DNA of 53,854 nt, filler included, from Sphacelaria rigidula (Eukaryota), in NCBI GenBank assembly GCA_964200075.2. It is 5 parts of 5 records of this genome, joined end to end, with 100 filler letters (N's around TTAATTAATTAA, not from the genome) between each part and the next. Parts side by side here need not be neighbours in the genome. Positions count along the whole stretch, not along the records: positions 21,588 to 32,276 come from CAXNAA020006072.1; 4 more parts are not named here. One strand, 5' to 3'. The translations under genes and the position numbers were made by a program. Below, in pieces: positions 3,340 to 46,800 of the stretch (the stretch's first letter is position 1; each line of letters opens with the position of its first letter). The notes below the pieces were generated by a model that worked only from the letters and a program-made list of their open reading frames with translations, did not search any database and was not told the origin of the DNA.

Positions 3340-3775
3340 CGACCGACTCTAATGGGAGGCGTTCAAAATTCCTGTTCAAAACTGCCTTTTCGGCCCTTCT
3401 CCGTGGTTTTACGCCTGAAAAGAGGGCTAGGCGGATGTTGACGCCTTGGAATGACTTGCTCTACTTATTGAGATGGTTCCAGGGCAACTTTTCATTTCCC
3501 GATGGCTGCGCTTTTATTTTCGACCAATATTACATTTTCAATGAAAAACGATCAGGCGATGAAAAACAGGGGGAAATTTTGATCACCTGACCGTTTTTGA
3601 CTGAAAATCCGTGTTTGGCCTGATTTGGCCAAAAATAAAAGTGCGGCCAGCGGGAAATGCAANNNNNNNNNNTCAACATCCGCCTAGCCCTCTTTTCGGG
3701 CGTAAATCGACGGAGAAGGGCCCAACAGGCAGTTTTCGACAGGACTTTTGAACGCCTCCCATTAGAGTTGCCCTT
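3340..3775. mobile_element. MITE with long TIRs; relatives at about 33400-33720 and 39720-40251
   Basis: ACTCTAATGGGAGGCGTTCAAAA...GGCTAGGCGGATGTTGA recurs inverted at 3673-3768. The ACGCC..AAA.AGAG.TAG.CGGA.TTTGA motif is shared with the other copies. Ends are approximate. Confidence 0.65.
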
Positions 3776-4137: not shown

Positions 4138-4339
4138 TCCGCACATTAGTCTGATCTCGCGAACCCGTCGTCACAGACGTAGGCTCGCCTTTCCAATACC
4201 GTCCCTGCTATTCCTCACCAGCCACATTACNNNNNNNNNNACCGGTGAGAAGTAGCTCCCCCGAGTTCAACGGGGAGAGAAAGAAAAGAAAGAAAAAACA
4301 ATCAAACAAACAACAAACGCCAGATCTGTCAGAAGTGTA

Positions 4340-10695: not shown

Positions 10696-10795
10696 NNNNN
10701 NNNNNNNNNNNNNNNNNNNNNNNNNNNNNNNNNNNNNNNTTAATTAATTAANNNNNNNNNNNNNNNNNNNNNNNNNNNNNNNNNNNNNNNNNNNN
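10696..10795. other. Artificial contig linker (44 N + TTAATTAATTAA + 44 N)
   Basis: Exactly 100 nt, carries stops in all six frames, identical to three other linkers. Confidence 0.97.
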
Positions 10796-11485
10796 ATTGA
10801 TCATTCCCGCCGTGGCATGCTTGGAGCAGAACTGCGCCTGTGTGCTCCCCACCACACCATACGACGGATGCATGGAGCAGCCCTCGTGGCCGCACCTCTT
10901 GCTTTTCACATCCACCATTCCCGCCGTGGCATGCTTGGAGCAGAACTGCGCCTGTTTGCTGCCCGCCATACAATACGACGGCCGCGTGGAGCAGCCCTCG
11001 TGGCCGCACTTATTGCTCCTCACATCCACCATTCCCGCCGTGGCATGCTTGGAGCAGAACTGCGCCTGTTTGCTCCCCACCACACCATAGGACGGCCGCG
11101 TGGAGCAGCCCTCTCGGCCGCACCTCTTGCTTTTCACACTCACCACTCCTGCCGTGGCATGCTTGGAGCAGAACTGTTCCCGTTTGCTGCCCGCCACACC
11201 AAATGACGGATGCATGGAGCAGCCCTCGTGGCTGCAGCTCTTGCGTTTCACATCCACCATTCCTGCCGTGGCATGCTTGGAGCAGAACTGCGCCTGTTTG
11301 CTGCCCAGCATACCATACGACGGATGCGTGGAACAGCCCTCGTGTCCGCAGCTCTTGCTTTTCACATACACCATTCCCGCCGTACCATGCTCGGAGCAGA
11401 ACTCTGTCTTGAAACCCCGTGAATCGTGAGATCGCGGTTTGGAGCAGTCCTTTTTCATGCACCGTTTCCTCGGGACTTCGGCCAT
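10796..11485 (-). CDS. EsV-1-7 cysteine-rich repeat protein, 5' part, truncated at the contig end
   Basis: ATG at 11485. One divergent repeat plus five 38-aa repeats, e.g. KRCGHEGCSMHPSYGVVGSTQAQFCSKHATAGM (the last is cut by the linker). Motif C-x4-C-x16-C-x2-H with a 114-bp DNA period. Confidence 0.88.
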
Positions 11486-14074
11486 AAGCGTTTTTGCGTG
11501 GCGCTCCTTCGAAACTCAACTGCTCACGGTAGCACAATGTCAAAACGGTGGAATAATATTTCGTGAATCATGGGGGAAAACAAGTTAAAATCATTTGCAG
11601 AATGAATGACGTTGTCATTGCTGAACATACCCTGGAGAAAAAGCACTTGCCTGCACTAAACTGAGACCACGCTTCATGAAAGCTGACGCCAACAACAGTG
11701 CTCGCAAGGTAGATCCACCGAATACATGTACTCTACACTATTGCAGTAGAAATCGGCAGTGAAAGAAGCACTGCTTACGGGGGAACGTTTATTGTATCAG
11801 GGGTTAGTTGAATGGATGTAACTCGAGCGTTTATCGATCGAATTCGACAAATGATAGCTCGGATGAGCCCCAGGGTCCGCACGATCACCGACCAACTAGA
11901 AAAGATCAAAAACAACGTGCGCGCAAGAAGGTAATGTAAAGTCCGTGGGTTGCTCTTGTCGGTGCCCCTTCAACCTCGCTTCAGGGATTGAGATATGACA
12001 TGCCATACCTCCGACGTGTTGCCGTCAAAATTGACAAGCGATAGCTCGGATGGACCGCAAGGTCCACGCGATTACCGGTCAGCAGGAATAACAAGTAAAA
12101 AAGTACACAAAAAGTCAGACGTGAATCTCGCGACTGCTTCTTATTTGTGCCCATACAATCCTGATTCAGGGGTTGAGGTATGACATAACATACGTCCGGC
12201 GTCTTGACGTCAAATCCAACAAATCACGGAGTGTCGACGTCGAAAATACATCGTTCTGTAGTGTAGACAGCACCCCACAGACACGAACACAGTATAAGAT
12301 GCACAGTAAGAACAATTCAAGACAAGCAGCACGAGAGTGCAACGAGCAGTACAACCACGAGAGGACACAATACAGACCGTACGGCCCAGAACAGCACCGT
12401 ATGGACAGTATACTTAAGCCTACAGTGCAACGCAGTGCAGAACAGTACATGCGGTAAAAATGGGTACACATGGTACACGCGATACCAATGAGTGCTGATA
12501 TGCAGTATAAGCAGCGCAGGACAGTGCGCAATACGCGCAATATATTTGAGTATGCGGTAGACAAGCAACCCAGTACAGTACTGTCAGAACCACAACAGGC
12601 TTGTGGTGTTCTCGTAGCTCCACGGGCTGGAGGTGTTCAGACTTCTCGCTTGTGATGCGGCTTGCTGATCGCCGTCAAGAGGTGTCGAGCTGGTGTCCCA
12701 AAATGATGTCGGTTGGTTGAGGCTTTTTTATACTGCTTAGAGTGTACACTGGTATTTGACTTGCTGCTGGTGTAGCTTCTCGGAAGACTGACCCCGGTGG
12801 GCCAGCAGCACACGCTCAAATCCCCCTTGAACCCCCATCTACATTCACACATCCATGGTGTTCATCCTCTTCGCAAATAGCAGAACTCCAGTCCCTCATA
12901 TTCCTACGTTCAACTGCAACTTCCTGTTGTTGGCTGAACCTACTTGTATCGCACTGCACGTCTATCTGAGATATATCACCAAGCCAAGTTCTCCTAAAAA
13001 CCGAACACGACTAATTAAAAGCTGGATGATACAACTATTCTCAAGTTCCCACTAGATCCAAGTCATTCGTTATTCTGCACGCAGACTGAAACACACGCAG
13101 GGCGTCTGCCTGCGGGACCCTCCTTCATTCGTATCTCGTACACCTGCTATAGCTTATACGTTGGTGTATAGTTTAACCCAATACTCTCATATTATATCAA
13201 TCATTGCTCTGCGTAACGGCAGCTGGAACCCAGGCTCAGTTTGTGATCACGACAGTACAGTACAGTACAGTACAGTACGCGCATTATGATGGAGTATACA
13301 GCACGAGCAGTGCAGTGCAGTGCAGTGCAGTGCAGTACACGCAACAACCTTGAGTACACCGTCCTTCGCAATTGCTGCCTTAACCTCAGCACTGTCTCCT
13401 CCTAAGCAACGGCGGCCTACTGTGCAGCGACGACTGCCTGGTGTGCAGCAACGGTTTCTTTGCGTCTTTCCATCTTCTTGATGTACACGAAGGGTTTGTT
13501 TTTTCTCGCCACCTTTGGTGCAGTGCCAGGAGGCGCTGCTGCACTAGGCAATGGGCTCAAATCAAGAGCATTACCGCTACCACATCTACTGTCATCGTTC
13601 CGATGCACACTCGGTCTACACGACACCATATGCTACGACAACTCCGAGACACAATAAAACGACCCAGTTCATGCATCGGTCCTGGCGGGAGAAACGGTTA
13701 AGCACGTACTCGTCGGCGTGCGAAGTCATCTGCGGGTGTATGATCCAGGCTAGCTTCTGGTTTGGTTTTTCCTCCTGGGTGTTCTTGATTTCGAAGAATA
13801 GCAGCAGTGTCCCGAACACTGTCGGCAAACGTATGGCAGCCAAAACAGCACACTAGGTGAAGGCTGCAGCTCTGAGATGCAATACGAGCTGGGCCAGCTG
13901 AAAAGCTGCTAAACGTTGCTCACACCACAGCTTCCCCAGTTTCCTGAATGAACCCGATGTGAGCATATCACTGCAAAGTGCAGACCAACCTGGAAACACA
14001 CGGCACCGCCGCTGAATGAAAAAAAAACGGGAAAAAAATGTACAGCATAATATATGATCTCAACGACGGACAAT

Positions 14075-21487: not shown

Positions 21488-21587
21488 NNNNNNNNNNNNN
21501 NNNNNNNNNNNNNNNNNNNNNNNNNNNNNNNTTAATTAATTAANNNNNNNNNNNNNNNNNNNNNNNNNNNNNNNNNNNNNNNNNNNN
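21488..21587. other. Artificial contig linker
   Basis: 44 N + TTAATTAATTAA + 44 N. Confidence 0.97.
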
Positions 21588-23235: not shown

Positions 23236-24507
23236 ACATAACGTTGCAACGAGGGTTTTTGGACGGATGACATCCCGTTACAACCGCGGAAAAAGTGTCC
23301 AAGCTGCTATCGCCCTGGTGACAAATCAATTGCAATGATTTCCAACCTTACTTGCCACTCACGCCGAAAGGCGACTGTACGACTGAAATGTCTGTTCTCT
23401 GATCCACCATACCACAACTTTACACTGTTCACTGAGCCGTCTGATACCTCCAACTCACATGTGCATTCTGGGAATTGGCGAGTGCACGCTTCATACGTAT
23501 TCGTGCGAGAATGTGACATTCTCGACAGGCCGGCTGTTCCATTGGCAACACAGGAGTTGTTCCCAGCAAAATGAGGGGCCAGGATGCTGCTACGGTACTC
23601 ACACCGAAGTAGCACCGAATGAACGTTTCGCAGTACGCTCTACAGTAGTGGGCGGTCTAACTATTCATTTTGAGGCGTTTGGGGATTTTTTCGTAATTGG
23701 TGATTTTCTTGGGCTTTTTTCGCTGGCCATCGCTCATCACATCGGGGATCTGAAGATACTTGTATCCGCTCCGCATTCCAAGAAGAAATAATCATCTGCA
23801 CGCAATATTGAGTGACTTACGGGCTGACCGGTCACGGGGAGTTCTGCCACGGTTTAGCCCAGATTCTTACTTTCCTGCATTATTGGTCGATCGAGCCCGT
23901 CCCGATCATACTTTGAAGGAAATGTACAGTTTCATTTTTCTGAAATTCTGCGTACTCATTGCACTGGGGCGGAAAACTGTGTTTCACGGTCAATAACACC
24001 CTCCTGATGAACGGGGTATTTATTCGTTTATCCCGATAACACCAACATACACCGACTTGGGTCCTGTGTTTCGGGGATGATCCGTTGTGTTGTAACAAAA
24101 TCTACCGCCGCTGGTGATTTCGACTTCTATCGAAGAGTAGTACGCGAGGAAAACCCTAAAACACCCCTAATGAGTTAGACCGCCCACGATGTTTACTGTA
24201 CATACGCCAATCAACAGGATACAAGCATTACAGTGTTCACACCCGCTATAACAACAAAAGTACACTTATGCAAACTGCTTTTCCAAAGAAGAACTTAGTT
24301 GAACCAATACCAGAACTCCGGCGCAGGCATCATCATGGTCACGCAAGAACAGCTCCACCCAGTCGCAACGACGCGCACGAAAACCGGAGCTGCGGCGGCG
24401 GACTTGAATATACGACCAAACTATTTAGGCAAAACTGGCGGTGAGCTATAGATGGGGATGCAGCGTGCATGTTATCATCACTCCAATTCGCGTTCGGGTT
24501 GAAACAC

Positions 24508-27171
24508 TTAATCAAGGGAGGAAAACGGTGCCGAAACTGCCAGCTCCATCTTCAGGCCTTCCTCTTTCCCATGCAACACCACTGAAGAAGTATCGACGGC
24601 AGCTTCTTCTGTCCGAAGGTGTTCACGAACCATCGCCGGCCTCCTGCAAATCCGCTTCTTCATTCTTTCATCGCAATTATCGCTAGAGTTACTGCCAATC
24701 GTGCCGCTCCCACCTTCACATGAGTAAGCGGTCCCACCGACTCTCCTTCGCAAGCTCTGCCTGGGACGCTGAAAGGGAGCAGACTCTTCCAATTTCACCC
24801 GAGTGTGCGGCCTTGTCCACAGAGATCCTCCCTCGGCACCCTCGGCGGGCTGCGGCGGCGCGGTACCAGCGAGTTTGGAGCTTACGAGCAAAACAGAACC
24901 AAACCCGACATCACTCGCACCACCCTTGAGACTTGTGGAATATTTGGGTTGTCCGTCCTTGATGGAACTCCCATCGATGATGTCTTCATGTTGCCCTCGC
25001 CCGGTTGCTCGAGATACGGCACGTTGGCATACGTTAATCTGTTCGACGCCATCAACGCGATACCCACATCGATTCGAACAGCCTTCGTTGCCGCACTTAT
25101 TGCTCACTACATCGAGCATGTCCCCCCTGACGTGATTGGCACAGAACTGCGCCTTCCGACTGCCCGCTACACCGTACGATGGTTCCTTGGAGCAGCCCTC
25201 TTCACCACACTTCTTGCTCATTACATAAATCATCCCTGGCCCGGAGTGGTCGCCACAGAAGCGTCTTACCCTACACCCCGCTACACCGTACGATGCTTCC
25301 TTGGAGCAGCCCTCATTGCAGCACTTCTTGCTCGTCACGTAGACCATCCCTGTCCTTGCGTGATTGGCACAGAACTCCGCTTTCCGGCCTCCCACTACAC
25401 CGTGCGATAGTTGTTTGGAGCAGCCCTCGTTGCCGCACTTCTTTCTCACTACATTGACCATCCCTGCCCTTGAGTGATCGGCACAGAACTCCGCTTTACG
25501 GCTTCCCACTACACCGTAAGATGGTTCCTTGGAGCAGCCCTCGTTGGCGCAATTCCTCCTCGCTACATTGACCATCCCTGCCCTGGCGTGATCGGCACAG
25601 AACTCCGCTTTCCGGCTTCCCACTACACCGTACGATGGTCCTTTGGAGCAGCTCTCATTGCAGCACTTCTTGTTCGCTACATTGACCATCCCAACCCTGG
25701 CATGATCGGCACAGAAGAGTCTTCTCGTACTTCCCGCTACACCGTGCGATGGTCGTTTGGAGCAGCCCTCGTTGCCGCACTTCTTCTTCGCTACATTGAC
25801 CATCCCAACCCTGGCATGATCGGCACAGAAGAGTCTTCTCGTACTTCCCGCCACACCGTAAGATGGTTCCTTGGAGCAGCCCTCGTTGCCGCACTTCTTG
25901 CGCACTACATTGACCATCCCTGTCCTTGCGTGATCAGCACAGAACTCCGCCTTCCGGCTTCCCACTACACCGTACGATGGTCCTCTGGAGCAGCTCTCAT
26001 TGCCGCACTTCTTGCGCACTACATTGACCATCCCAACCCTGGCATGATCGGCACAGAAGAGTCTTCTCGTACTTCCCGCTACACCGTACGATGGTCGTTT
26101 GGAGCAGCCCTCGTTGCCGCACTTATTTCTCGCTACATTGACCATCCCAACCCTGGCATGATCGGCACAAAAGAGTCTTCTCGTACTTCCCGCCACACCG
26201 TACGATGGTGTTTTGGAGCAGCCCTCGTTGCTGCACTTCTTGCGCACTACATTGACCATCCCTGTCCTTGCGTGATCGGCACAGAACTCCGCCTTCCGGC
26301 TTCCCACTACACCGTACGATGGTCGTTTGCAGCAGCCCTCCTTGCCGCACTTCTTGCGCACTACATTGACCATTCCTGCCCTTGAGTGATCGGCGCAGAA
26401 CTCCGCCTTCCGGCTTCCCACTAAAGCATATGATGGTTCCTTGGGGCAGCCCTCGTTGCCGCACTTCTTTCTCGCTACATTGACCATCCCCAAACTGGCG
26501 TGATCGGCACAGAACTCCGCTTTCCGGCTTCCCGCTACACCGTAAGATGCACGTTTGGAGCAGCTCTCATTTGCGCACTTCTTGTTCGCTACATTGACCA
26601 TCCCCAAACTGGCGTGATCGGCACAGAACTCCGCTTTCCGGCTTCCCGCTACACCGTAAGATGCACGTTTGGAGCAGCTCTCATTGACGCACTTCTTGTT
26701 CGCTACATCGACCATCCCTGCCCTGGCATGATCGGCACAGAACTCCGCCTTCCGACTGCCCGCTACACCGTACGATGATTGTTTGAAGCAGCCATCGTTG
26801 CCGCACTTCTCGCTCACTACATTAACCATCCCTGCCCTGACGTGATCGGCACAGAACTCCGCCTTCCGACTGCCCGCTAGACCGTACGACGGGACTTTGG
26901 AACAGCCCTCGTTGGCGCACTTCTTGCTCACTACATTGACCATCCCTGCCCTGGCATGAGCGGCACAGAACCCCGCTTTCCGGCTTCCCGCTATACCGTA
27001 CGATGGTGTTTTGGAGCAACCCTCGTTGCCACACTTCTTGCTCACGACATTGACCATCCCTGCCCTGGCGTGATCGGCACAGAATTCTGCTTCCCGACTC
27101 TCCGCTACACCGTACGATGGTTGCTTTGAGCAGCCCTCGTTACCGCACCCCTTCTGTACTTCTTTCACCAT
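24508..27171 (-). CDS. EsV-1-7 cysteine-rich tandem-repeat protein: 18 full 38-aa repeats, one degenerate repeat and a ~170-aa C-terminal tail
   Basis: Uninterrupted ORF 24508..27306. The called start is GTG; the first in-frame ATG is at 27171 and an upstream exon is possible. Consensus KKCGNEGCSKxPSYGVAGSRKAEFCADHARAGMVNVVx fits C-x4-C-x16-C-x2-H-x12, the EsV-1-7 motif known from Ectocarpus virus EsV-1 and the Ectocarpus IMM family. Confidence 0.92.
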   Translation of the reverse strand: MVKEVQKGCGNEGCSKQPSYGVAESREAEFCADHARAGMVNVVSKKCGNEGCSKTPSYGIAGSRKAGFCAAHARAGMVNVVSKKCANEGCSKVPSYGLAGSRKAEFCADHVRAGMVNVVSEKCGNDGCFKQSSYGVAGSRKAEFCADHARAGMVDVANKKCVNESCSKRASYGVAGSRKAEFCADHASLGMVNVANKKCANESCSKRASYGVAGSRKAEFCADHASLGMVNVARKKCGNEGCPKEPSYALVGSRKAEFCADHSRAGMVNVVRKKCGKEGCCKRPSYGVVGSRKAEFCADHARTGMVNVVRKKCSNEGCSKTPSYGVAGSTRRLFCADHARVGMVNVARNKCGNEGCSKRPSYGVAGSTRRLFCADHARVGMVNVVRKKCGNESCSRGPSYGVVGSRKAEFCADHARTGMVNVVRKKCGNEGCSKEPSYGVAGSTRRLFCADHARVGMVNVAKKKCGNEGCSKRPSHGVAGSTRRLFCADHARVGMVNVANKKCCNESCSKGPSYGVVGSRKAEFCADHARAGMVNVARRNCANEGCSKEPSYGVVGSRKAEFCADHSRAGMVNVVRKKCGNEGCSKQLSHGVVGGRKAEFCANHARTGMVYVTSKKCCNEGCSKEASYGVAGCRVRRFCGDHSGPGMIYVMSKKCGEEGCSKEPSYGVAGSRKAQFCANHVRGDMLDVVSNKCGNEGCSNRCGYRVDGVEQINVCQRAVSRATGRGQHEDIIDGSSIKDGQPKYSTSLKGGASDVGFGSVLLVSSKLAGTAPPQPAEGAEGGSLWTRPHTRVKLEESAPFQRPRQSLRRRVGGTAYSCEGGSGTIGSNSSDNCDERMKKRICRRPAMVREHLRTEEAAVDTSSVVLHGKEEGLKMELAVSAPFSSLD
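25102..27153 (-). repeat. Coding minisatellite, 18 x 114 bp
   Basis: Exact 114-bp period of ACATTGACCATCCC...GATCGGCACAGAA, with no indels. Confidence 0.95.
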
Positions 27172-30100
27172 CCCAACCCTGTTCGCCGGCACTTCCACTA
27201 CGTTGACGCCCGTCGCGCTATCTCGTGAAATAGTCACGCAGCCCTCCGGGCGCACTGCCACGCTAGCATCGCCGCTATGTCGGCAAAACAAGAGGCTCAA
27301 GCGCACCCAATATCGGCTGCTTCTGGCAGTCCCACTGATGAATAGCCAAACGAGAGGGGCAGGCGATCCCTCCTGATGCTGCCTGTGAATTTTCGACGGA
27401 TTGAAAAGGCGATTCGAAGATTGTCAAGTGTTGTTCGAATGCGGCATACAGTACCTCGAGGAAAATGGTAACTGCGGGCTGTTCATATTATGTGTGGTCC
27501 TTCACCATGTGATGAGCCCGGGTAGGCCTTTGCTTTGTCGAACGTTCCATTTCCACGCGTAGTGCTGCCGGTTCGAGGAAAGCGCTGAAAACCCCTAGAT
27601 AATTCCTCCACTGAATCCGCCAGTGGATTGCGCAACCCATGCAAACAAGCAACGCAAACACATGGCATACGCCACGGCCGAAAACCAGAAGTATGGGAGA
27701 ATGGTATCGATCGAAAACACACACTACAAGCCTTTTAGTCTTGATTATCAGAAGTTGAAAGATCTCGAGCCTCCGCGAGGAATTCGTAGCTCACCCTCTG
27801 TTGCCGTCAGTTGTGCCATGCAGATAGCTTGACAAAATTCAAATGTATGTGTATCACAATTGTCTCTGCCTGAGTAAACCTATTTCACTCAACTTCTGCC
27901 ATTGGCGCGTATGAAGTGGCATGATGATTTAGAGGATGTTAACGACCTCCTCGTAAGTACCATCCTGCATATTTTGGCATTAGTACGTGCTGCAGCTGTA
28001 GTTGTGCGTAGTGACAACCGGCCAAGGACTTCGGCCCTCACAAGGCAGGCATGTTTCTCGGCGACTGATGGCCATCAGACCTTCAGTTTCCGCAACACCC
28101 ACTGACATATTTGCAAGCAACGAGTACGGAAATTTATCGAATAAACACGCGAAACTACAATACAAAGCACACGGGGTAAACAACCGAAGTTGATCTTTCC
28201 ATGAATGAGTCGAGAATCCTTCCAAAAATGTACGGAATCCTAATCTTTTGTGGGTCAATTTCGACCCATCCTCCAAGCGACAGCTAAGGAAGACGACATA
28301 CGGAAGCGAAGACAGCTGAAACGAGTGGTGGTGAGAACAAAAGCAACAAAGGCTGACATGTCTGCCTCTTGATGCGAGAACCGAAAGTCAGTGCCTTCCT
28401 GAATGCTAGACCTACTCAGCACACATAGACCCAACGTGACCAGGAGGTGATGGGGGAAAACGTTACACCCCGGAATGTCGGAGAATTAAGCTACCCAACT
28501 TACATTTTTGAATGAGTAGTACGTATCGGCGACCATCGACTACGAACTGTCCATTACATAGGCAAGTCGCCCAGTCACGGTATGGCTTGAGCGGTGAAGC
28601 CCATGCTTGAAAAAAATTGTTTCACGGAGGTTGGAAATTACAAAAAGCTCAGGTCCCGCCTCAGCACTGGTACATGACAATCTCGATGAATTCCGGTCAA
28701 CAGCTCATAACGAATGCATGGCCACATCATCTATGCTGAACAAATACACGTCCATTACGAAGCCATGATGAACTGCGCCATGTACTTGAAGTTTCTTCAT
28801 AGCATACCTCGAGGGTCAATGCCGAGTTTGTGAATGAAAATGGCTCCACATGTGCAGGGAGATACACCGTATGCACCGTCCCCCGCGTGTGACACGATAA
28901 ATATACAACAAACTGTGCGCTCGGGATATCCCATTGTATGTGCTCGTGGTAATCTTGGATCGTTTGTTATGGACTGGAACCGAGGTGCTGGAGAAAGAAG
29001 CACGAGTCTGGAGAAAACTAAAATGAAGTAAGTTTAGCACCAGCACTTTGAACGCATTAGCCCCCGCAAAAATGGTGCTTTCGGCAAACGATGAGATCAA
29101 GACATGATCGCGCCTCTAAAGTACACCATCTCAGTGCACAGGACGCGTGAACATTACTACGGGAGCAAATTACACCCAGCCCCCAACACGAGACCAGTGG
29201 TGATGGTTCTGAAGTACTAACTTAAGCAGGTAAACAGACTTCGGTTTTGTGACCTCGGCGTTTTGTTCTTATTGTGACCTCGGCGTTTTGGTCATGGTCA
29301 CGTTAAACATGTGATGGCGTTTGTTCATTTATTCCTGGTGACCCTTACGGGCTCTCCATCGTGTTTGATTGTCGCACACTAAGTGATCCCCGAGTGATAA
29401 CAGGCGTGGTCACAAGATAGGCGCACTCAACGTAAACAAAACGTAGTCACTCGCTATTAACAATGGGAACTCGAGCGAGGGTAATGACGAAACAAGCATG
29501 ATAAAAATATGGCACACACAATTGGCTGAAGACATACGCGCTACAAACGTACGATATGTGTCATCACATATACCACTCTCGCTCTTACTATTGTTCGACG
29601 AGACTGAGACTGACTGCAATCCTGTCTGATTAGTTGCGCCCACGCCGATGACATAGTGTTACGTGTCTCGTCAACAGTGATATCACCGCTGGTATGCAAT
29701 CAGTTCTTCAACTTCCATCATGCAAAAGCGCTTCTCTACAGGCAGCACCCTCCCAACCTCCCCTCCCCATGCCATGACCTCCCAACTTGCCCTTGGATGG
29801 TTCAACATGGTGAGTAGGAGCCACAGCCTAGACGAGTCGCTGAAGTTCTCGATACATTCGATGCTTTGCATCGTAGGCAGCACCTATTCGGGTCTTGACG
29901 TGTGCTCTCATTGGGGGTATCGAGGTCGTGACGTACGTTTGGTTCGTGTTGGCATGTGCTGGACACGAGGTTGCCCCCCGAGCGACATGTTTCAACACGT
30001 ACTTCCCCCGCCGGCTGCGGATATATCGGCAGATCGGTATATTTAGTCACGAGAAAAGAAAATAGCGATCGGACAACATCTGTAGGTCACACACAACACC

Positions 30101-32276: not shown

Positions 32277-32376
32277 NNNNNNNNNNNNNNNNNNNNNNNN
32301 NNNNNNNNNNNNNNNNNNNNTTAATTAATTAANNNNNNNNNNNNNNNNNNNNNNNNNNNNNNNNNNNNNNNNNNNN
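32277..32376. other. Artificial contig linker
   Basis: 44 N + TTAATTAATTAA + 44 N. Confidence 0.97.
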
Positions 32377-37817: not shown

Positions 37818-38178
37818 TGGTTCCCTTGGTAACTTCGAAACCTTGTGACGGTTGGGGCGTGGGTTCAAACCTCGGAGTGACCTAGGATTTTTTTTCCACA
37901 CAATATTCAACCGAGCGACGATATCGTGGATAAACAATTTTCGACTCAATGGGCAACGAGGGAAAGGGACTGCTGAATCCCCCTCGCGATTAAAAATACA
38001 GGCAAGCACCGCACGAGGAAGTTGGTCTACCAACACGAAATATACAACAACATAAAAAAAACTGACGTGTTGTGTTTACTTTCTTCCTGAGTGACCCCGA
38101 CTGCTGCGCCCACATATGCCAAAAGGTGTACAATAGCCCGGCGCCTAGAATATATCTAACGACAACACACACACTCAC

Positions 38179-38698
38179 CTTCTCCGCAATTGGTTCCGAA
38201 GATCCTTCCGGGGCAGCAGAAGCAGTAGCAGCAGGGGCAGCGACGGGACCCTTCTTTTTCCCCTTCTTCCCCTTCTTGGCCGCCGCAGACCACGACGCGG
38301 GCGATGGCGACGTACTACCCACATCCTTCTCTTTCTCTTTCTCCTCCACCTGCCCAGAGGCACCCGCAGCACCGGCCTCAGCCGCTCCATCGTCTTCCCG
38401 CGCCGTATCAGCGCCCTCCGCTCCCTTGTCCGCCGCTGCCGTTGCTGCTGCACCGGTGGCCGATTTGGCGTCGTCGGCTCCCCCGCCGGCGGCGCTCGCC
38501 CCCTTTTTGTCTCCGGAAGAAACGCATGCTGTGGCAGCGGCGGCACCGGCGGAGGTAGCGTTATTGGATCTTCTGCCGCTGCGCAGGTCCCGCCAAACGG
38601 CGTCCAAGCGTCGGTTGGCGTACTCGGCGCCGCACCACACCCCGAGCTTGATCGAGCGGTGTATGTCTTCCTCCCAGAACGTTTTTATGACAAAAAAC
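38179..38698 (-). CDS. YTH-domain protein exon (FFVIKTFWEEDIHRSIKLGVWCGAEYANRRLDAVWR plus low-complexity insert)
   Basis: Matches the YTH N-terminus RxFxIKSxSEDDIHRSIKYxxWCST..GNxxLD. Acceptor CACAG, donor AAG|GTGAGT; phases are consistent with neighbouring exons. Confidence 0.9.
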
Positions 38699-39719
38699 CT
38701 GTGTGGTACGTATGCAAGAGCATGCCATGCCATGTCATGTGCCATATCATGTAATATCGTGTCACGCACTACGAGCTGGGCAAGATGATCGTGTTCATTG
38801 TTGGTAATCGGGTGAGGCGGAACTCAATTGGAGGAGTTAGACCAACTTCTTTTCGAGCATCGGGGGGGAAAAGAAATCGGGGGAGGCATTTTATGGACAC
38901 CGACTTGGACGAAATCGGGGAGTCAAGATCTCGGAACGGTTTCCCCCGATTTCTCGAAAAAAACTCGTGGTACATTGTTCCGAGACCGTGACTCCCCTCA
39001 ATATTTTTGGAGTGACATAAGCGGATTGACGTACAATGGTGGGGCACGAGGGGGCGTTTGATATTTTTACAACGGTAACGGAAGTCCGTCTCGTGACAGC
39101 GCAGGGCGTGCCTACTGTCCGCGCCAGCAGCTGAAGCAACTTAGCACGGGGTTTGGCAAGCGGATAATAAGTACTGACGCCGTACCCTGCGGCGATGGTG
39201 ATACTTCATGCTGCGCTGCGCTGCTGTATGTATCACTGTAACAAACGCTACTGTACTCTACTCGCTGTTGTCGCTGTACTTGAGGGGCGATGGACCGCAT
39301 TGCTGGCGCACTTTGTTCTCTGTTCTCGCACTACCGACTGTGCCATCATGTACCACCACACGGCATCATCATGTGCTGTACTGATGGAGTGTCAGGTATT
39401 ACCCGAGGGTACCAAGGTACGATACTGTACTCCAAGGATTGTGTACCGCCTGCCTGCTCTTCGGTTTCATGCACGAGTACAGAGTACAGTACCACACTCA
39501 TGCAGAAAATGACCGTCCGTGTACAGAACCGTTTCACAGTTCACCAATCTGTGGTACTGTACTGTCTGTACCATAAAACGGTCCCCCCGATTTTGAGTTG
39601 GCGAATTTGAGTTCCTCCGACTTTTCAAAATCGGTGTCTCAAAAATATCGAGATTCCTTGCCATAAAAGTTGGTCGTTAGACCGCTCCTTTGAACAGACA
39701 AGATGAAAAAGTCTGAACA

Positions 39720-43065: not shown

Positions 43066-43165
43066 NNNNNNNNNNNNNNNNNNNNNNNNNNNNNNNNNNN
43101 NNNNNNNNNTTAATTAATTAANNNNNNNNNNNNNNNNNNNNNNNNNNNNNNNNNNNNNNNNNNNN
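43066..43165. other. Artificial contig linker
   Basis: 44 N + TTAATTAATTAA + 44 N. Confidence 0.97.
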
Positions 43166-43829
43166 GGGAAAGCACTGTTTTAGGCTTGAACCTCATCTCG
43201 AAGTTAAACCTCAATCCGCACAATTTGTTGTTCACTGCGGAAAGCAAGGTCACGTTAGGAGAAATTGCCCCGCCCGAAGGGCGACCCGAGCACTGACAGG
43301 GGGAGACGGTCAGGACGGGGGAAACAGTGGGAATGTAGGCAAGTGGTGCTCTTTCCATAGGTCAACAACCCACAGCGAAGAGGAGTGCCGTTCCTTGCAA
43401 CAGCGCAACCAGCAGACAGCCAATTTAGCACAATGGTCAGAATATCCACCAGCCACCGGTACAAGGGAGCACCCTCCCGCCATCTCCTTTAATGCCCTAC
43501 AAGCACCCAAAGCGAAACATCCCCAAGCGGACAACCTTTGGCCTTTCGCTGACACTTTTTACGATAGCCCCTCCTCACAATCAGCTAAAAGTGTCACGAC
43601 AAAAATGGCCATGCAGCGCCTGATGTTCGGGTTCAGGCTGCATGAAGCGCCTCATATCGGCGACATTGGCTAGAACGATTCCAAGCGTGGGAGTTCCCAG
43701 CTTCTCATTGTGCTCGGCCTTTCCCGTTTCGATTTACGTGAAGATTGTGCCTCCCAAAACCATTCACTGTTTGGGGGGGGCTATCGTAGAAAGTGTCCGC
43801 TCCAAGGAACAAACCCGTTGCTTCTTTTG

Positions 43830-46800
43830 ACAGCAGCGGCCTCTTCGGCGCCTTCGAAGGGGCCGACGGAGAGGAGGCCGGGGGTCCGGGATTCTGGCGC
43901 AGAGCTCGCAACCTACTGCGGGGAATCAGGGAGACACTTTCCCCACTAGTGCGCGCGCTGGCCGTAGTAGCCGTAGTCCACTACGTCTGGTTGATGTTCG
44001 GGGACTCATTATACCCCCGGGCCACGTCGAACCTCGACAATACCGCTGAAACGTTTGGCGGAATCACCGATGCTGATGATGGGACGGCTCTCGCGGCAGG
44101 ACCCGCTCTTGACAAGTGCACTGAGGGTAGCAATAGCCATGTCAGTGTCATGGTAAACAGTGGTGCGTCGGGACATTACTTCGACGATACCCTCATCCCG
44201 GGGCTACGGTATAAACTCCACAACTACCAAGAACTGGCGACCCCGCGTACGATCACCACTGCAGGGGGGCACCAACTGGCAGGGGTTGGTAAAGGACTGC
44301 TCCGCGGACACATCCAAGACGGCGAAGGGGTCAAACGCCTGGTTCAGATTTCGTGTTTGGTCGTGCCTGGCTTGGGGCGGAACTTGTTCTCCGTCAAACA
44401 AGCGACACGGAATGGAGTTGTATTTATTTCGAAATGGACAACTCAAGACTCGAGACAAACCACTTCACCGTTCCGCTCCAGGAACTGGAGAGCGACCTGT
44501 ATTTCTTCTCTCTGGAACTAAGCAGCGGCAACGACGCATCTGGACTAGCTGTGGAAGCTGCAGACGCCGCCACGCTGTGGCATCGGAGGATGGGACACTT
44601 GAACAGCAATAGTTTGAATCTTCTCAAAAACGTCGGAAGTAACGGGGTGGATTTCGGTGGAGCCGTTCCGGACTGTGATATTTGTGCTGATGGGGAAAAT
44701 CATAAAGTGGCCCACCCGAAGACAGCCAACAACAAAGTGCAACGCGCTTTTCAATTAGTCATGACAGATTTGATGGAACCGACCATGCCGGAGGCGCTGG
44801 GAAGCTTCAAGTACGTCTGCAAGATCTCCGATGAGTATACCAGATGGACAGAGATTTACCTAAAAAAAACCAAGGACGGCATCCTTTATGCATTTCAGTC
44901 CTACATATAGCCAATGGTCATTCCTGGCGGTGTTCGGGTCGAACGACTAAGGGCAGACAAAGGCGGTGAGTTCATCGGCAACTAGTTCAAGTCGTACTGC
45001 CGACAGACAGGCATATTGCTAGAGTTTGCAAGCACCAATACACCACAACAAATCGGCCTGTCAGAACGCGTAGGAAGGACGCTTGCAGCCATGGTCCGGT
45101 GCATACTTGCTGACGGTGGTTTGCCGACTTTTCTCTGGGGGGAATTAATGTTCACAGCGGCCTATCTTGCAAACAGATCACCGCATTCGGCGCTTAACAT
45201 GCAGTCGCCTCATAAGATGCTCAAGGGGACAGAACCGGATCTCAAGCACCTTCGAGTCGTCGGAGCCAGGGCTTTCGTACATATCGAGTGTCGTACTTCG
45301 AAACTTGCTCTCAAAGCAGTTGAAGGACGACCAGTTGGGTACAGTAATGATAGTAGGAGCTACCGAGTCTACAACCCGGCCATGCGACGTATCATTTAGA
45401 GCAGGAACATCGTCTTCATCGAGACTTCGACACACCTTACCCCAACGGGAGAGCCACAGCTTCGGATACACCCATTTTCACTTGGTGACCAGGACTCCAG
45501 CAACAGAGAGGACCACAATTACGTCACCGACGACGACTTCTTCCGTGATCTTCGCAATCACACCTTCGTACTAGATCAACCGGCTCACGCCTCCGTTGAT
45601 CATATCACTGCCAGCGGGATCTCTAGCGATCCACAGGTGGCCGAGCTTCTAGAGAAAATCAGCGCCATCACCAAGCGGGACATGCTGCACGACGACGACA
45701 CACCTCGTGAAGAGACGTCGCCGACAGCATCACCGGAGAGCCGTGCGCCGCTGGAACAAACTGCATCCCTTCTCGGGACACAGTCAGCCAATCCACATCA
45801 TCAGCCGAATCACCATTGCTCAACCGCTCTCGACACTCTCGCCATCAAGTAACTCCCGCCGTGACGCGCGCAGGCATTGCAGCGCGGTCCTTCAGGGAAC
45901 GCTACATCAACAACGACGGCGCAGCTTCTGCGCACCTTTCAGCCACTGTGGACGACAAAATGCTCTCCGAGCTACGGCGACTGCAAATACACACCAACGC
46001 GCTCCTACCAGATGTCGCGCACCAGACGTTTGGGGCGGAATCAGTCGTGGAGTATGCCTACTCAACTACCAACCTCTCGAGCTGTCCAGTGGGGGAGAAA
46101 ACTGAAAGAATCCCAAACACGATCAATGAGGCCATGAGTCTTCCCGAAAAGGAACAATGGAAGGCGGCATCAGATAAGGAGATGGATAGCCTAAGAAGGA
46201 ACAACGTGTATACTCTAGTGCCGTCAAGCTCCGTCCCAACCGGACACAGGTTAATTGGGTGTACAAGAAGAAAGCGGATTTCTCTCACAAGGCCCGAGTC
46301 GTCGTGCAGGGTTGAGGACAAATCCCCGGCGTCGACTGTGGCAGCACTTTCGCACCGGTCTGCAGGGTCCAAAGCATCCGCATGGTATTAGCTGTAGCGG
46401 AGGAATATGACTTGGAGTGTTGGCAATTGGACTATAACACCGCCTTTCTGAACGCCGAACTCAAGGAAGAAGCTTACGCCAAATGGCGCCAGGATACGAG
46501 GAGTTTGACGCCAATGGAATTCCGATGGTAATGCGACTCCACAGAAGTCTCTCTGGCCTCCGTCAAAGTCCAAACTGCTGGTGGGGAACGGTCGACACAC
46601 ACCTGGCGGACATTGGATTCAAATACCCTAAGTCTGACCCTTGCGTGTACATATACCAAGAGAGCGGCGACGTCTACATTTTGACTTAATACGTCGATGA
46701 CGTCCTACTGCTTGGGAAAGATGTCAAAGTTCTGGGAAGGATCAAGCATAAACTGATGGGACGTTTCTCAATGACGGATATGGGAGATGTATCATTCGTG

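Follow-up and report, generated by a model that had tools for sequence, protein, structure and literature searches.

The locus described here raises the question of whether a long array of EsV-1-7 repeats in the brown alga Sphacelaria rigidula could act as a modular recognition code, with one switching residue per repeat on a fixed scaffold, as an initial annotation of this DNA had proposed. The EsV-1-7 family (PF19114) occurs in brown algae and phaeoviruses and includes the Ectocarpus regulator of early development IMMEDIATE UPRIGHT, and we know of no ligand or mechanism for it. Part of the text of 10.1101/2024.02.19.579948 counts 2018 EsV-1-7 proteins in 31 brown-algal genomes, places them among the largest gene-family expansions there, and describes the genes as common to viruses and hosts, greatly expanded and arranged in tandem gene arrays. 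That EsV-1-7 proteins are zinc-finger transcription factors is given as a hypothesis, with citation of Macaisne 2017, in a portion of an eLife 2025 article (PMC12629598). The transcription-factor idea is already published and the 'code' part alone is new; neither repeat-variable positions nor a nuclease-type fusion was described in the literature searched, the scope of which excluded Macaisne 2017 and supplements. The window, by which we mean the whole stretch of DNA that was analysed, is 53,854 nucleotides long and joins five parts from five records of this genome.

The array lies on the minus strand at 25102..27153 and comprises 18 exactly phased repeats of 38 aa (114 nt), as delimited by Pfam, Tandem Repeats Finder and a ligand pattern. 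Specifically, the Pfam model EsV_1_7_cys (PF19114) matches the encoded protein, P0001, in 18 stretches with 849 bits (cut-off 25; E 5.1e-263), Tandem Repeats Finder reports a single array at 25079-27148 (period 114, 18.2 copies, 83% matches, 0% indels), and the pattern C-x4-C-x16-C-x2-H occurs 18 times with a spacing of exactly 38 aa in 17/17 cases. Repeat 1 begins at residue 52 (window 27153), repeat 18 finishes at 25102, and repeat i runs from 27153-114(i-1) down to 27040-114(i-1). The phasing, the invariance of C3, C8, C25, H28, S13, F24 and M33, and the basic character of the scaffold had all been claimed from first inspection and are borne out, with V36 as an additional invariant column that had been missed and with a pI of 9.4 and a net charge of +60 over the 684 aa of the array. 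Position 11, encoded by nt 31-33 of each 114-nt unit (27121-27123 in repeat 1), reads Q,T,V,Q,R,R,E,R,T,R,G,E,R,G,E,Q,E,E from repeat 1 to repeat 18, identical to the string first given, and the residue pairs at 37-38 vary as described (VS, AN, AR, VR, AK, TS, MS). The loop described as having two states does show SRKAEF in 9/18 repeats and STRRLF in 4/18 (repeats 9, 10, 12 and 13), but the other five repeats are each a single variant.

P0001 has the motif, the spacing and the tandem 38-aa units of the EsV-1-7 family. Among homologue arrays, adjacent repeats are spaced by 38 aa 261 times and by 39 aa, the next commonest value, 27 times. It differs from the rest of the family in length, its 18 canonical repeats being the most among 107 proteins compared, where the runner-up has 11, and in that a homologue search found no orthologue, the best full-length-range match being 46% identical over 48%. 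Its nearest named relatives are from Sphacelaria rigidula itself (64% identical at most, across roughly one fifth to one third of the query), Ectocarpus and Pylaiella. The open reading frame is listed at 24508..27306 on the minus strand (932 codons plus stop, with GTG as listed start) and is free of stops over 24508-27423. The earliest in-frame ATG, at 27169..27171 (residue 46, MVKEVQKGCG), lies six residues upstream of repeat 1 and is a possible translation start, though there may be an upstream exon. The N-terminal 51 residues of the listed frame (27154..27306) end in ..ANRVGMVKEVQ, which looks like the remnant of a decayed repeat 0, and their similarity to the repeats is weak. On the other side of the array, a degenerate unit 19 (NKCGNEGCSNRCGYRV..., 24988..25101) retains C3, C8 and C25 and has lost H28. 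It is followed by a C-terminal tail of 159 residues (24511..24987) that has no family match and gave nothing significant against 226 other family proteins (best E 0.02). Pfam assigned PF19114 alone to P0001, apart from a spurious DUF1490 match with no stretch of its own, and neither Pfam nor a search for the C-terminal motif discussed below revealed a nuclease or other known domain.

We analysed how each column of the array has changed. Per-column entropy is highest at position 11 (2.39 bits), as the initial annotation would predict, but this is barely above position 31 (2.26 bits; A, L, T, V, P or G), which had been overlooked; positions 38, 4, 23 and 37 follow with 1.71, 1.68, 1.61 and 1.49 bits. 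When state changes are counted as a minimum (treekit) on leave-one-codon-out trees of the 18 repeats, codon 11 exhibits at least 12 amino-acid changes as compared to 7, 7, 6, 6 and 5 at columns 4, 38, 31, 37 and 29, and its three nucleotide positions have 9, 7 and 2 changes. Site tests were performed with a purpose-written codon model in which likelihoods are summed over unobserved states. The non-synonymous rate of codon 11 is 17.4 times the synonymous rate of the array as a whole (LRT 53, p 3e-13), and the two-rate test gives an LRT of 14.5 (p 1.4e-4, or about 0.005 when corrected for 38 sites). A tree that leaves out codon 11 gives the same result (beta 21, p 1.4e-4), as does a star tree (beta 8.9, p 3.7e-4), such that the expectation that position 11 exceeds a neutral rate holds on three trees. 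No other codon among the 38 has beta significantly above alpha in these tests. Additional evidence comes from a duplicated 342-nt unit of three repeats, with copy 1 at 26014..26355 (repeats 8-10) and copy 2 at 25672..26013 (repeats 11-13), both on the minus strand. The copies have 19 differences over 342 nt, and codon 11 of the three repeats accounts for 3 of them (R>G, T>E) against an expectation of 0.5 (binomial P 0.013). Chance does not account for the excess at position 11. Apparent recurrent change could be inflated by short-tract gene conversion among repeats, a worry that the star tree reduces and does not remove.

The same columns were then compared in other EsV-1-7 arrays, with which the window repeat is in register (columns 1-37 on 1-37 of viral repeats; hhalign probability 96%, E 3e-9). 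A survey of the family yielded 252 other arrays with at least five canonical repeats, the 47 most homogeneous of which were analysed. In these, repeats differ pairwise by a mean of 0.71, 0.68 and 0.67 at columns 11, 38 and 13 and by no more than 0.46 at any other column, with column 11 highest or tied highest in 19/47; among 63 arrays with a mean difference of 0.5-0.6, column 11 ranks sixth. In 11 young giant-virus arrays columns 38, 11 and 13 alone lie above the synonymous rate (pN/pS of 1.83, 1.80 and 1.75), with the remaining 35 columns at 0.65 or less. A good example is the viral locus L064, where nine repeats with 94% DNA identity differ at 11 (Q/R/I), 13 (T/N) and 38 (S/N/H), and also by F/Y at column 14 and R/H at column 5. 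For 22 named brown-algal arrays, the leading columns are 38, 37 and 11 (0.81, 0.75 and 0.74; next 0.64). The claim of one hypervariable position per repeat is thus too simple. Codon 11 is the sole site with beta above alpha in this array, but the family has a set of hot columns, viral arrays having 11, 38 and 13 and brown-algal arrays 38, 37 and 11. Nor is position 11 restricted to the classic base-contacting residue types, as I, L, V, W, Y, C and G also occur there in many family arrays. Contacts with protein therefore fit these residues as well as contacts with DNA.

Conservation between species was also assessed. In three green-algal orthologues that are 69-76% identical, column 11 differs between repeats in a fraction of 0.95 and between species in 0.00, which ranks it first of 38 columns for this contrast. 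A fourth, fragmentary orthologue matches at column 11 in 4/4 repeats. Columns 4-6, 19, 30 and 31 differ in 52-86% of cells among these proteins, and column 11 includes W, Y and C. When 28 independent colinear pairs are compared, 54% of the cells of column 11 still differ, and its between/within ratio (0.72) is the lowest of the highly variable columns by a small margin. Mutual information between columns mainly reflected clades and gave no information on column 11. Because position 11 changes faster than synonymous sites, is hot in independent arrays and is fixed across four green-algal orthologues, its pattern is the evolutionary signature expected of a residue that determines specificity, like those of C2H2/PRDM9 arrays and TALEs.

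What such a residue would sit on can be outlined from the repeats themselves. They are likely Cys3-His metal-binding modules, with zinc presumably as the metal. Mean-field couplings over 1667 distinct repeats, a crude measure that is affected by relatedness, connect 15-19, 16-19, 4-23, 24-33, 30-33 and 33-36 and suggest a two-ligand knuckle, then a beta hairpin, then a helix whose first turn would supply the last two ligands. This putative order of elements would resemble that of the treble-clef GATA finger (C-x2-C-x17-C-x2-C), which has a similar ligand spacing. However, the EsV-1-7 repeat has no sequence similarity to any solved chain, and GATA fingers are single or paired whereas the window array has 18. 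Metal binding and fold are inferences, as are the exposed location of residue 11, the nature of the ligand and any code that relates residues to bases.

Evidence for the involvement of DNA is found among giant-virus relatives, in which the array is fused to a C-terminal domain. The motif PD..E.DE..H..NP[DH] is present in 50/105 and 59/120 proteins of two homologue sets, and residues D, E, D, E, H, E, R, R, N and D of the domain are invariant in 48/48 aligned viral sequences. In IMG/VR, tblastn confirmed 543 of 598 pattern stretches, so the fusion exists at no fewer than 543 giant-virus loci. The domain is matched by 7336 cluster representatives at E <= 1e-3, and PF19114 is also present in 24 of the 25 that were scanned. 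Pfam gives weak matches to Hjc (PF01870; 5/51 members, best E 0.011) and to DUF2726 (PF10881; 1/25, E 0.0035), both of which we take to be members of the PD-(D/E)xK clan. Together, the motif and these sub-threshold matches point to a putative nuclease-like domain. PHROGs, NCBIfam and PADLOC gave no informative family for the viral proteins or P0001, and searches of the PDB by sequence with array-plus-domain, domain-only and single-repeat profiles returned nothing meaningful. We had presumed a resemblance to DUF559/Vsr, and that identity was dropped since it was not among the Pfam matches and the DUF559 model had no match in the single bin holding locus L081. When genome contigs were searched for prokaryotic relatives of the domain, the 20 loci obtained all lay on contigs from uncultured MAGs, which are probably mis-binned giant-virus DNA and no bridge to a named bacterial family. 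The domain (RPD..E.DE.QH..NPD) is absent from P0001 and was detected in 0/43 named brown-algal and 0/4 named green-algal proteins. A separate association is given in part of the text of PMC12477816, in which a Tc1/Mariner transposase of Ectocarpus carries an EsV-1-7 domain at its N-terminus. The nuclease-like fusion, this transposase and the net positive charge, which is common to all EsV-1-7 array classes, make a nucleic-acid ligand plausible. Since the window protein and the named algal proteins lack the nuclease-like domain, the link to DNA reaches the window protein by family association only.

The reading that we favour, tentatively and at somewhat short of an even chance, is that the array is a modular reader of nucleic acid, probably DNA, with residues 11 and 37/38 (and 13 in viral relatives) as specificity residues. 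The tandem Cys3-His modules would together present a surface that recognises a nucleic acid in modular fashion, with double-stranded DNA as the likeliest ligand. Every module of 38 aa would contribute a constant basic scaffold together with a small number of exposed residues that set specificity. In the window array specificity would reside mainly in residue 11, aided by 37/38 and perhaps 31, and in giant-virus relatives in 11, 13 and 38. New specificities may arise by duplication of repeat blocks followed by selected change of these residues, as in PRDM9/KRAB C2H2 arrays. In giant viruses the array would be the targeting part fused to the conserved nuclease-like domain, and the brown-algal copy that lacks this domain could be a transcription-factor-like DNA-binding regulator or a competitor for such sites. 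The recognition code first proposed thus retains the specificity signature and a plausible nucleic-acid ligand, but would involve more than one position per repeat.

Known systems were compared with the array. The likeness to C2H2 arrays (PRDM9, KRAB) is one of behaviour and not of membership. They also consist of tandem metal modules built from minisatellite-like DNA, expand by block duplication (342 nt here), and confine positive selection to a few residues per module with ligands and core fixed. They differ in their ligands, C-x2-4-C-x12-H-x3-5-H as compared to C-x4-C-x16-C-x2-H, and P0001 has no zf-C2H2, KRAB or SET match, a 38-aa period with no separate linker, and a DNA binding that is putative. 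TAL effectors share near-identical repeats with very few variable residues, a likeness that is most striking in L064. TALE repeats are bacterial, metal-free units of two helices and 33-35 aa, each reading one DNA base by a simple cipher, whereas EsV-1-7 repeats are 38-aa Cys3-His modules of eukaryotes and giant viruses, and their variable residues (11, 13, 37, 38) are spread out where those of TALEs are adjacent. To our knowledge there is no residue-to-base cipher for EsV-1-7. In giant viruses, the variable array and the conserved C-terminal domain, in which acidic and His residues are invariant, together resemble engineered zinc-finger and TALE nucleases and natural modular nucleases with a separate DNA-binding part, except that the nuclease role of the viral domain is putative and the window protein has no such domain.

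Several other explanations were weighed against a DNA reader. A rather doubtful but serious one is that the array recognises proteins, for example as a receptor, decoy or adaptor in the conflict of giant viruses with their algal hosts, with 11, 13, 37 and 38 as a diversifying protein-binding surface like that of receptors built from leucine-rich or ankyrin repeats. Repeat receptors that bind proteins show diversifying selection at a few exposed sites just as typically, so that this signal does not name the ligand; hydrophobic or aromatic residues are frequent at position 11 (I 71 and L 23 of 409 viral repeats, with W, Y and C in green algae); and the viral protein P0334 joins ankyrin repeats to the array and C-terminal domain. 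The presence of the family in viruses and hosts, and its expansion in tandem gene arrays as described in part of 10.1101/2024.02.19.579948, would fit as well. Against this, the main partner of the array, a domain with an acidic motif, is strongly conserved and weakly similar to nucleases, a DNA transposase has acquired the EsV-1-7 domain (PMC12477816, in the part concerned), every array class is net basic, and R and Q together account for 204/409 viral and 203/476 other position-11 residues. The green-algal orthologues also have Q/A-rich tails with a basic end, which would resemble those of many transcription factors. That the array reads RNA or single-stranded nucleic acid, like CCHC knuckles, CCCH fingers or RanBP2-type fingers, seems distinctly unlikely. 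Small Cys/His modules with conserved aromatics at 14 and 24 and conserved lysines would suit such a ligand, and a short module with few variable residues recalls PUF and PPR proteins, which read RNA with one repeat per base. However, the partners, a restriction endonuclease/Holliday-junction resolvase-like motif and a DDE transposase, point to DNA, and the covariation of the aromatics with the core (24-33 and 4-24) suggests a structural and not a base-stacking role.

Two further explanations would dispense with recognition altogether. If position 11 were an unconstrained loop residue, its diversity would reflect relaxed constraint and the shuffling of a few alleles by gene conversion, which is expected in tandem repeats. 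In its favour, codon 11 has 7 codons (6 residues) where codons 4 and 38 have 7 and 6, the repeat trees are poorly resolved (6/15 inner branches below 80 support), and the family-wide entropy of column 11 (3.62 bits) is similar to that of columns 4, 5, 9, 16 and 27. This reading is already disfavoured, and we regard it as improbable, in that the rate at codon 11 exceeds the synonymous rate and not just the mean non-synonymous rate, on three trees including the star, 11 independent arrays from viruses likewise exceed pS at the same columns, and identity at 11 across four orthologues is unexpected while columns 4-6, 19, 30 and 31 differ. A metal-binding or buffering protein for zinc or copper, with repeats for capacity, is the least credible of the alternatives, at barely a chance. 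Fixed positions of the array do hold 54 Cys, 18 His and 18 Met, and C25-x2-H28-x4-M33 resembles the Cys-His-Met copper loop of plastocyanin. This likeness, however, is short and under every threshold (PDB profile E 0.34 over 11 residues; NCBIfam plastocyanin matches in 14/51 viral proteins, best E 2e-5, far below cut-off), M33 couples with F24 as a core residue would, and buffering leaves the selection at position 11, its conservation in orthologues and the enzyme-domain fusion unexplained.

A modular reader of DNA, if that is what the array is, could be taken further. In an extended version that we consider unlikely, EsV-1-7 would join C2H2 fingers and TALEs as a third natural class of programmable repeats that read DNA, each module reading one or a few bases via 11, 13 and 38 (11, 37 and 38 in brown algae). 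Viral array-nuclease fusions would provide many specificities per genome, nuclease-free algal copies would be fast-diversifying DNA-binding regulators, and the 18-repeat gene would be an extreme, actively diversifying case. What the analysis does reveal is within-array change focused on two or three residues, faster than silent sites when arrays are young and fixed between orthologues when they are old. For what was a cysteine-rich protein of unknown function there is now a hypothesis that can be tested directly and that names the residues to swap and what to measure, and the very large family of giant-virus arrays with a nuclease-like domain suggests the origin and first use of the module. 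If the modules do read DNA one by one, designed DNA recognition would gain a new small scaffold, and the modules would help to explain how brown algae invent new regulators.

A second EsV-1-7 gene piece, P0002, is located at 10796..11515 on the minus strand and has six repeats, a masked stretch truncating it. These repeats are 51-55% identical to the main array, and their position 11 is limited to H or R. P0001 and P0002 are 14 kb apart along the joined stretch and on the same strand there, but belong to separate records and are perhaps not genomic neighbours. The pair can be read as fitting the tandem gene arrays noted in part of 10.1101/2024.02.19.579948, with the same proviso that their records differ. 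Rfam and tRNA scans across the whole window gave no match. Finally, contigs from four runs are short and extend over the intergenic flank as well, and thus look like DNA.

The array gene belongs to the EsV-1-7 family. It lies in a minus-strand ORF of 932 codons (24508-27306) whose repeat core (25102-27153) comprises 18.2 copies of a 114-nt period, with 83% matches between copies and free of indels. The translation gives 18 units of exactly 38 amino acids with the pattern C-x4-C-x16-C-x2-H, the spacing being 38 residues in 17 of 17 intervals, and Pfam assigns 18 stretches to EsV_1_7_cys (E 5e-263). Assignment of the protein as C2H2, TALE, PUF or PPR was rejected. A degenerate 19th unit that has lost its histidine follows the array, and the end of the 51 residues ahead of repeat 1 also resembles a decayed unit, with the first ATG located six residues upstream of repeat 1. 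The 159-residue tail of the ORF matched no Pfam family and showed no significant similarity among 226 other family proteins (best E 0.02). The initial annotation described a fixed scaffold with one switching residue per repeat, and the series of position-11 residues that it reported is present in the sequence, as is the invariance of C3, C8, S13, F24, C25, H28 and M33. The residue pairs at positions 37-38 and the two-state loop also read as described, and V36, which went unmentioned, is likewise invariant across the array. Another point that went unmentioned is position 31, where A, L, T, V, P and G occur and where the raw entropy of 2.26 bits comes close to the 2.39 bits of position 11.

The observation on this array is real and statistically sound. 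When codon rates are checked, position 11 varies beyond neutral expectation. Pooled pairwise counts give a pS of 0.32 and a pN of 0.16 for the whole repeat, with a pN of 0.61 at codon 11. On trees that were each built without the codon being tested, codon 11 requires at least 12 amino-acid state changes among the 18 repeats, followed by columns 4, 38, 31, 37 and 29 with 7, 7, 6, 6 and 5; the nucleotide changes at its first, second and third positions number 9, 7 and 2. A codon model written for this analysis (GY94 type, F3x4, global kappa 2.5, omega 0.68), with per-site fits on the repeat tree, assigns codon 11 a non-synonymous rate of 17.4 when the synonymous rate is held at the array-wide value (LRT 53, p 3e-13). 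Fitting the two rates independently puts alpha at approximately 0 and beta at 18.6 (LRT 14.5, p 1.4e-4, or about 0.005 corrected for 38 sites), and none of the other codons among the 38 sites has a beta significantly above alpha in this two-rate test. The one-rate test alone raises codon 31 (beta 3.2, p 0.013) and codon 38 (beta 2.3, p 0.04). The codon-11 result persists on the tree lacking codon 11 as well as on a star tree (beta 8.9, p 3.7e-4), which removes topology from the argument. A tree-free comparison is offered by repeats 8-10 versus 11-13, a recent 342-nt duplication with 19 differences, 3 of which fall at the three codon-11 positions where 0.5 are expected (P 0.013). Short-tract exchange among repeats could mimic recurrent change at codon 11; the other variable codons of the array fit the repeat tree well.

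Diversification of position 11 is not universal among the arrays of this genome, as indicated by a second, shorter EsV-1-7 gene piece on the same strand (10796-11515, minus), which lies 14 kb away along the joined window and in a different record. This piece has six repeats with 51-55% identity to the main array, is cut off by a masked stretch (10752-10795), and has position 11 limited to H or R and position 10 to T or M.

Three protein searches and one viral scan yielded several hundred family members, none of which is an orthologue of the array protein (the best match of similar length has 46% identity over 48% of the query); among named proteins, the nearest come from Sphacelaria rigidula, a brown alga. 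Variation at position 11 is not peculiar to the array gene, which is the chief extension of the initial observation. We ranked 252 other arrays with at least five canonical repeats by the likeness of the repeats within each array. In the 47 most homogeneous arrays the difference is 0.71 at column 11, 0.68 at column 38 and 0.67 at column 13, with the next column at 0.46, and column 11 is first or joint first in 19 of the 47. The contrast between columns weakens with divergence, such that column 11 is sixth in the 63 arrays with a mean difference of 0.5-0.6. The leading columns are 38, 37 and 11 in 22 arrays from named brown algae, 153 of whose 193 repeats have S at column 13, and 11, 13 and 38 in 39 giant-virus arrays (0.76, 0.76 and 0.72; next 0.53), the array repeat aligning with the viral repeats in register column by column (hhalign probability 96%). 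Counting codons across 11 young viral arrays yields a pN/pS of 1.83 at column 38, 1.80 at column 11 and 1.75 at column 13, with every other column at or below 0.65. For example, the nine repeats of the viral gene at locus L064 share 94% DNA identity and differ at positions 11 (Q/R/I), 13 (T/N), 14 (F/Y), 38 (S/N/H) and 5 (R/H), their position-11 string being QRIRIRIRR. Another young array with the same habit is found in P0372, a 584-aa protein with eight near-identical repeats that read R, G, V, I, V, Q, Q, R at position 11. In its mode of evolution the array gene is like PRDM9 and KRAB C2H2 arrays, and the young viral arrays are like TALEs in having near-identical repeats with few variable residues.

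Green-algal orthologues show the other side of this behavior. Seven colinear repeats with 69-76% identity are shared by proteins from Coccomyxa elongata, Botryococcus braunii (the EukProt label) and Elliptochloris bilobata, all of which have the column-11 series W, H, Y, Q, Q, R, C. The difference at column 11 is 0.95 within the array versus 0.00 between species, which ranks it first of 38 columns, followed by columns 37, 21, 2, 38 and 13; at columns 4-6, 19, 30 and 31, by contrast, the species disagree in 52-86% of cells. In a partial fourth orthologue, column 11 is the same in 4 of 4 repeats. Across 28 independent colinear pairs of all kinds the effect is weaker than in the green algae: column 11 differs by 0.54 between pair members versus 0.74 within arrays, and no other highly variable column has a lower ratio, although the margin is modest. 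Together with the rates in young arrays, these comparisons indicate that residue 11 is fixed in old arrays and driven to change in young ones. In this conserved green-algal orthologue group (P0069, P0071, P0062 and P0373), the seven repeats precede a long low-complexity tail rich in Q, A and G and basic at its end, an organization reminiscent of a transcription factor. The P0062 gene model is joined to electron-transfer-flavoprotein domains, probably as a gene-model artefact.

In a very large family of giant-virus relatives (loci L001-L080, for example L064:651-2444) the EsV-1-7 array leads into a pair of CxxC pairs and then a conserved C-terminal domain in which D, E, D, E and H are invariant. 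This domain, with the motif RPD..E.DE.QH..NPD, was present in 50 of 105 and 59 of 120 unnamed homologues, and D83, E96, D98, E99, H102, E110, R113, R130, N132 and D134 are invariant in 48 aligned viral domains. In IMG/VR, 543 of 598 pattern stretches were confirmed, many of them on giant-virus MAG contigs, and the domain profile matched 7336 cluster representatives at E <= 1e-3. EsV-1-7 motifs occur in 24 of 25 scanned domain representatives, two of which have C2H2 fingers as well. The domain matched no Pfam family above threshold; sub-threshold matches were to Hjc (5/51) and DUF2726 (1/25), both of which we take to be members of the PD-(D/E)xK nuclease clan. The invariant acidic residues suggest that the domain may be a metal-dependent enzyme acting on nucleic acid. 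Within this viral set, L049, L059 and L068 lie on contigs that share a single giant-virus MAG name and are paralogues whose position-11 strings differ, L074 holds two copies of the array-domain gene, and L064 neighbors genes for an XPG/FEN-type nuclease, a RING protein and a SAP-domain protein. Twenty further loci with the viral-type domain (L081-L100) are on contigs filed as bacterial or archaeal MAGs (Nitrosopumilaceae, Methylomonas, Colwellbacteria and others), which are likely mis-binned giant-virus DNA.

Published passages on the EsV-1-7 family describe a probable new zinc-finger class of unknown function that has undergone a huge expansion in brown algae and that also occurs in the regulator IMM, and one hypothesizes that its proteins are zinc-finger transcription factors (PMC12629598). 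In the EsV-1-7 literature searched, the founding paper (Macaisne 2017) and supplements aside, we found no description of repeat-variable positions or of a nuclease-like fusion. A PDB sequence and profile search found no solved chain similar in sequence to the repeat or to the viral domain. Couplings computed crudely from 1667 distinct repeats link 15-19, 16-19 and 16-20 (hairpin turn), 4-23 and 4-24 (knuckle versus second strand), and 24-33, 30-33, 33-36 and 35-38 (helix packing on F24), and provide a lead toward a treble-clef order as in GATA. The couplings of column 11 are weak, and its strongest partners are columns 2 and 13. Lysines 1, 2, 10 and 21 of the repeat are conserved.

The initial annotation's interpretation is partly supported. 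The evolutionary evidence is good that specificity is set by residue 11 together with 37 and 38 (and 13 in the viral relatives); no evidence so far supports a one-residue, one-base code. That position 11 has no recognition role is quite improbable. As to what is recognized, the array may be a modular reader of nucleic acid, mainly DNA, a tentative reading to which we give somewhat less than even weight. The evidence for DNA as the partner is circumstantial and comes from the viral domain fusion, a transposase with EsV-1-7, basic charge and the R and Q residues at position 11. In transposases, DNA binding is a function of the N-terminal part. With a pI of 9.4 and a net charge of +60, or +3.3 per repeat, the array is basic (medians are +2.0 for viral and +3.3 for named brown-algal arrays). 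R and Q dominate position 11, accounting for 204 of 409 residues there in the viral repeats and 203 of 476 in the repeats from the first search. The green-algal tails are Q/A-rich with a basic patch at the end. A passage in PMC12477816 describes an Ectocarpus Tc1/Mariner transposase that acquired an N-terminal EsV-1-7 domain.

However, position 11 also frequently holds I, L, V, W, Y, C or G, and the enzyme domain is absent from the array protein and from 43 of 43 named brown-algal proteins, both of which count against DNA reading. A protein-binding surface is a rather unlikely alternative that we nevertheless place ahead of RNA reading, which we consider improbable. Metal handling is the least probable of these; in its favor, the stretch F-C-A-D-H-A-R-A-G-M-V (C-x2-H-x4-M, columns 25-33, with M33 invariant) resembles the plastocyanin Cys-His-Met copper loop, a likeness that is probably due to chance. 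The plastocyanin-like stretch has a PDB profile match at E 0.34 over 11 residues, and the NCBIfam plastocyanin model matches 14 of 51 viral proteins in alignment A2, far below its cut-off.

The window itself is ordinary eukaryotic nuclear DNA. It contains a YTH-domain exon-like ORF (37990-38823, minus, E 6e-6) and, at 43790-44521 (plus, E 6e-7), a Pol beta-barrel piece of a retroelement; a Pfam scan of 13 other long ORFs gave no match, and tRNA and Rfam scans of the window gave no matches. Long antisense ORFs within the array (24724-26778, plus, for example the 303-aa ORF at 25474-26385), together with a DUF1490 match that has no stretch of its own, were rejected as genes or domains and are by-products of the repeats. 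Just downstream of the array gene, at 23610-24170, contig depth rises by orders of magnitude in all four runs and numerous contigs end or join across, which marks a dispersed repeat that is probably a transposable element. Runs of N are located at 3663-3672, 4231-4240, 10696-10795, 21488-21587, 32277-32376 and 43066-43165, and four pairs of 44-base masks, about 10.79 kb apart, look like a product of masking or joins and not of biology.
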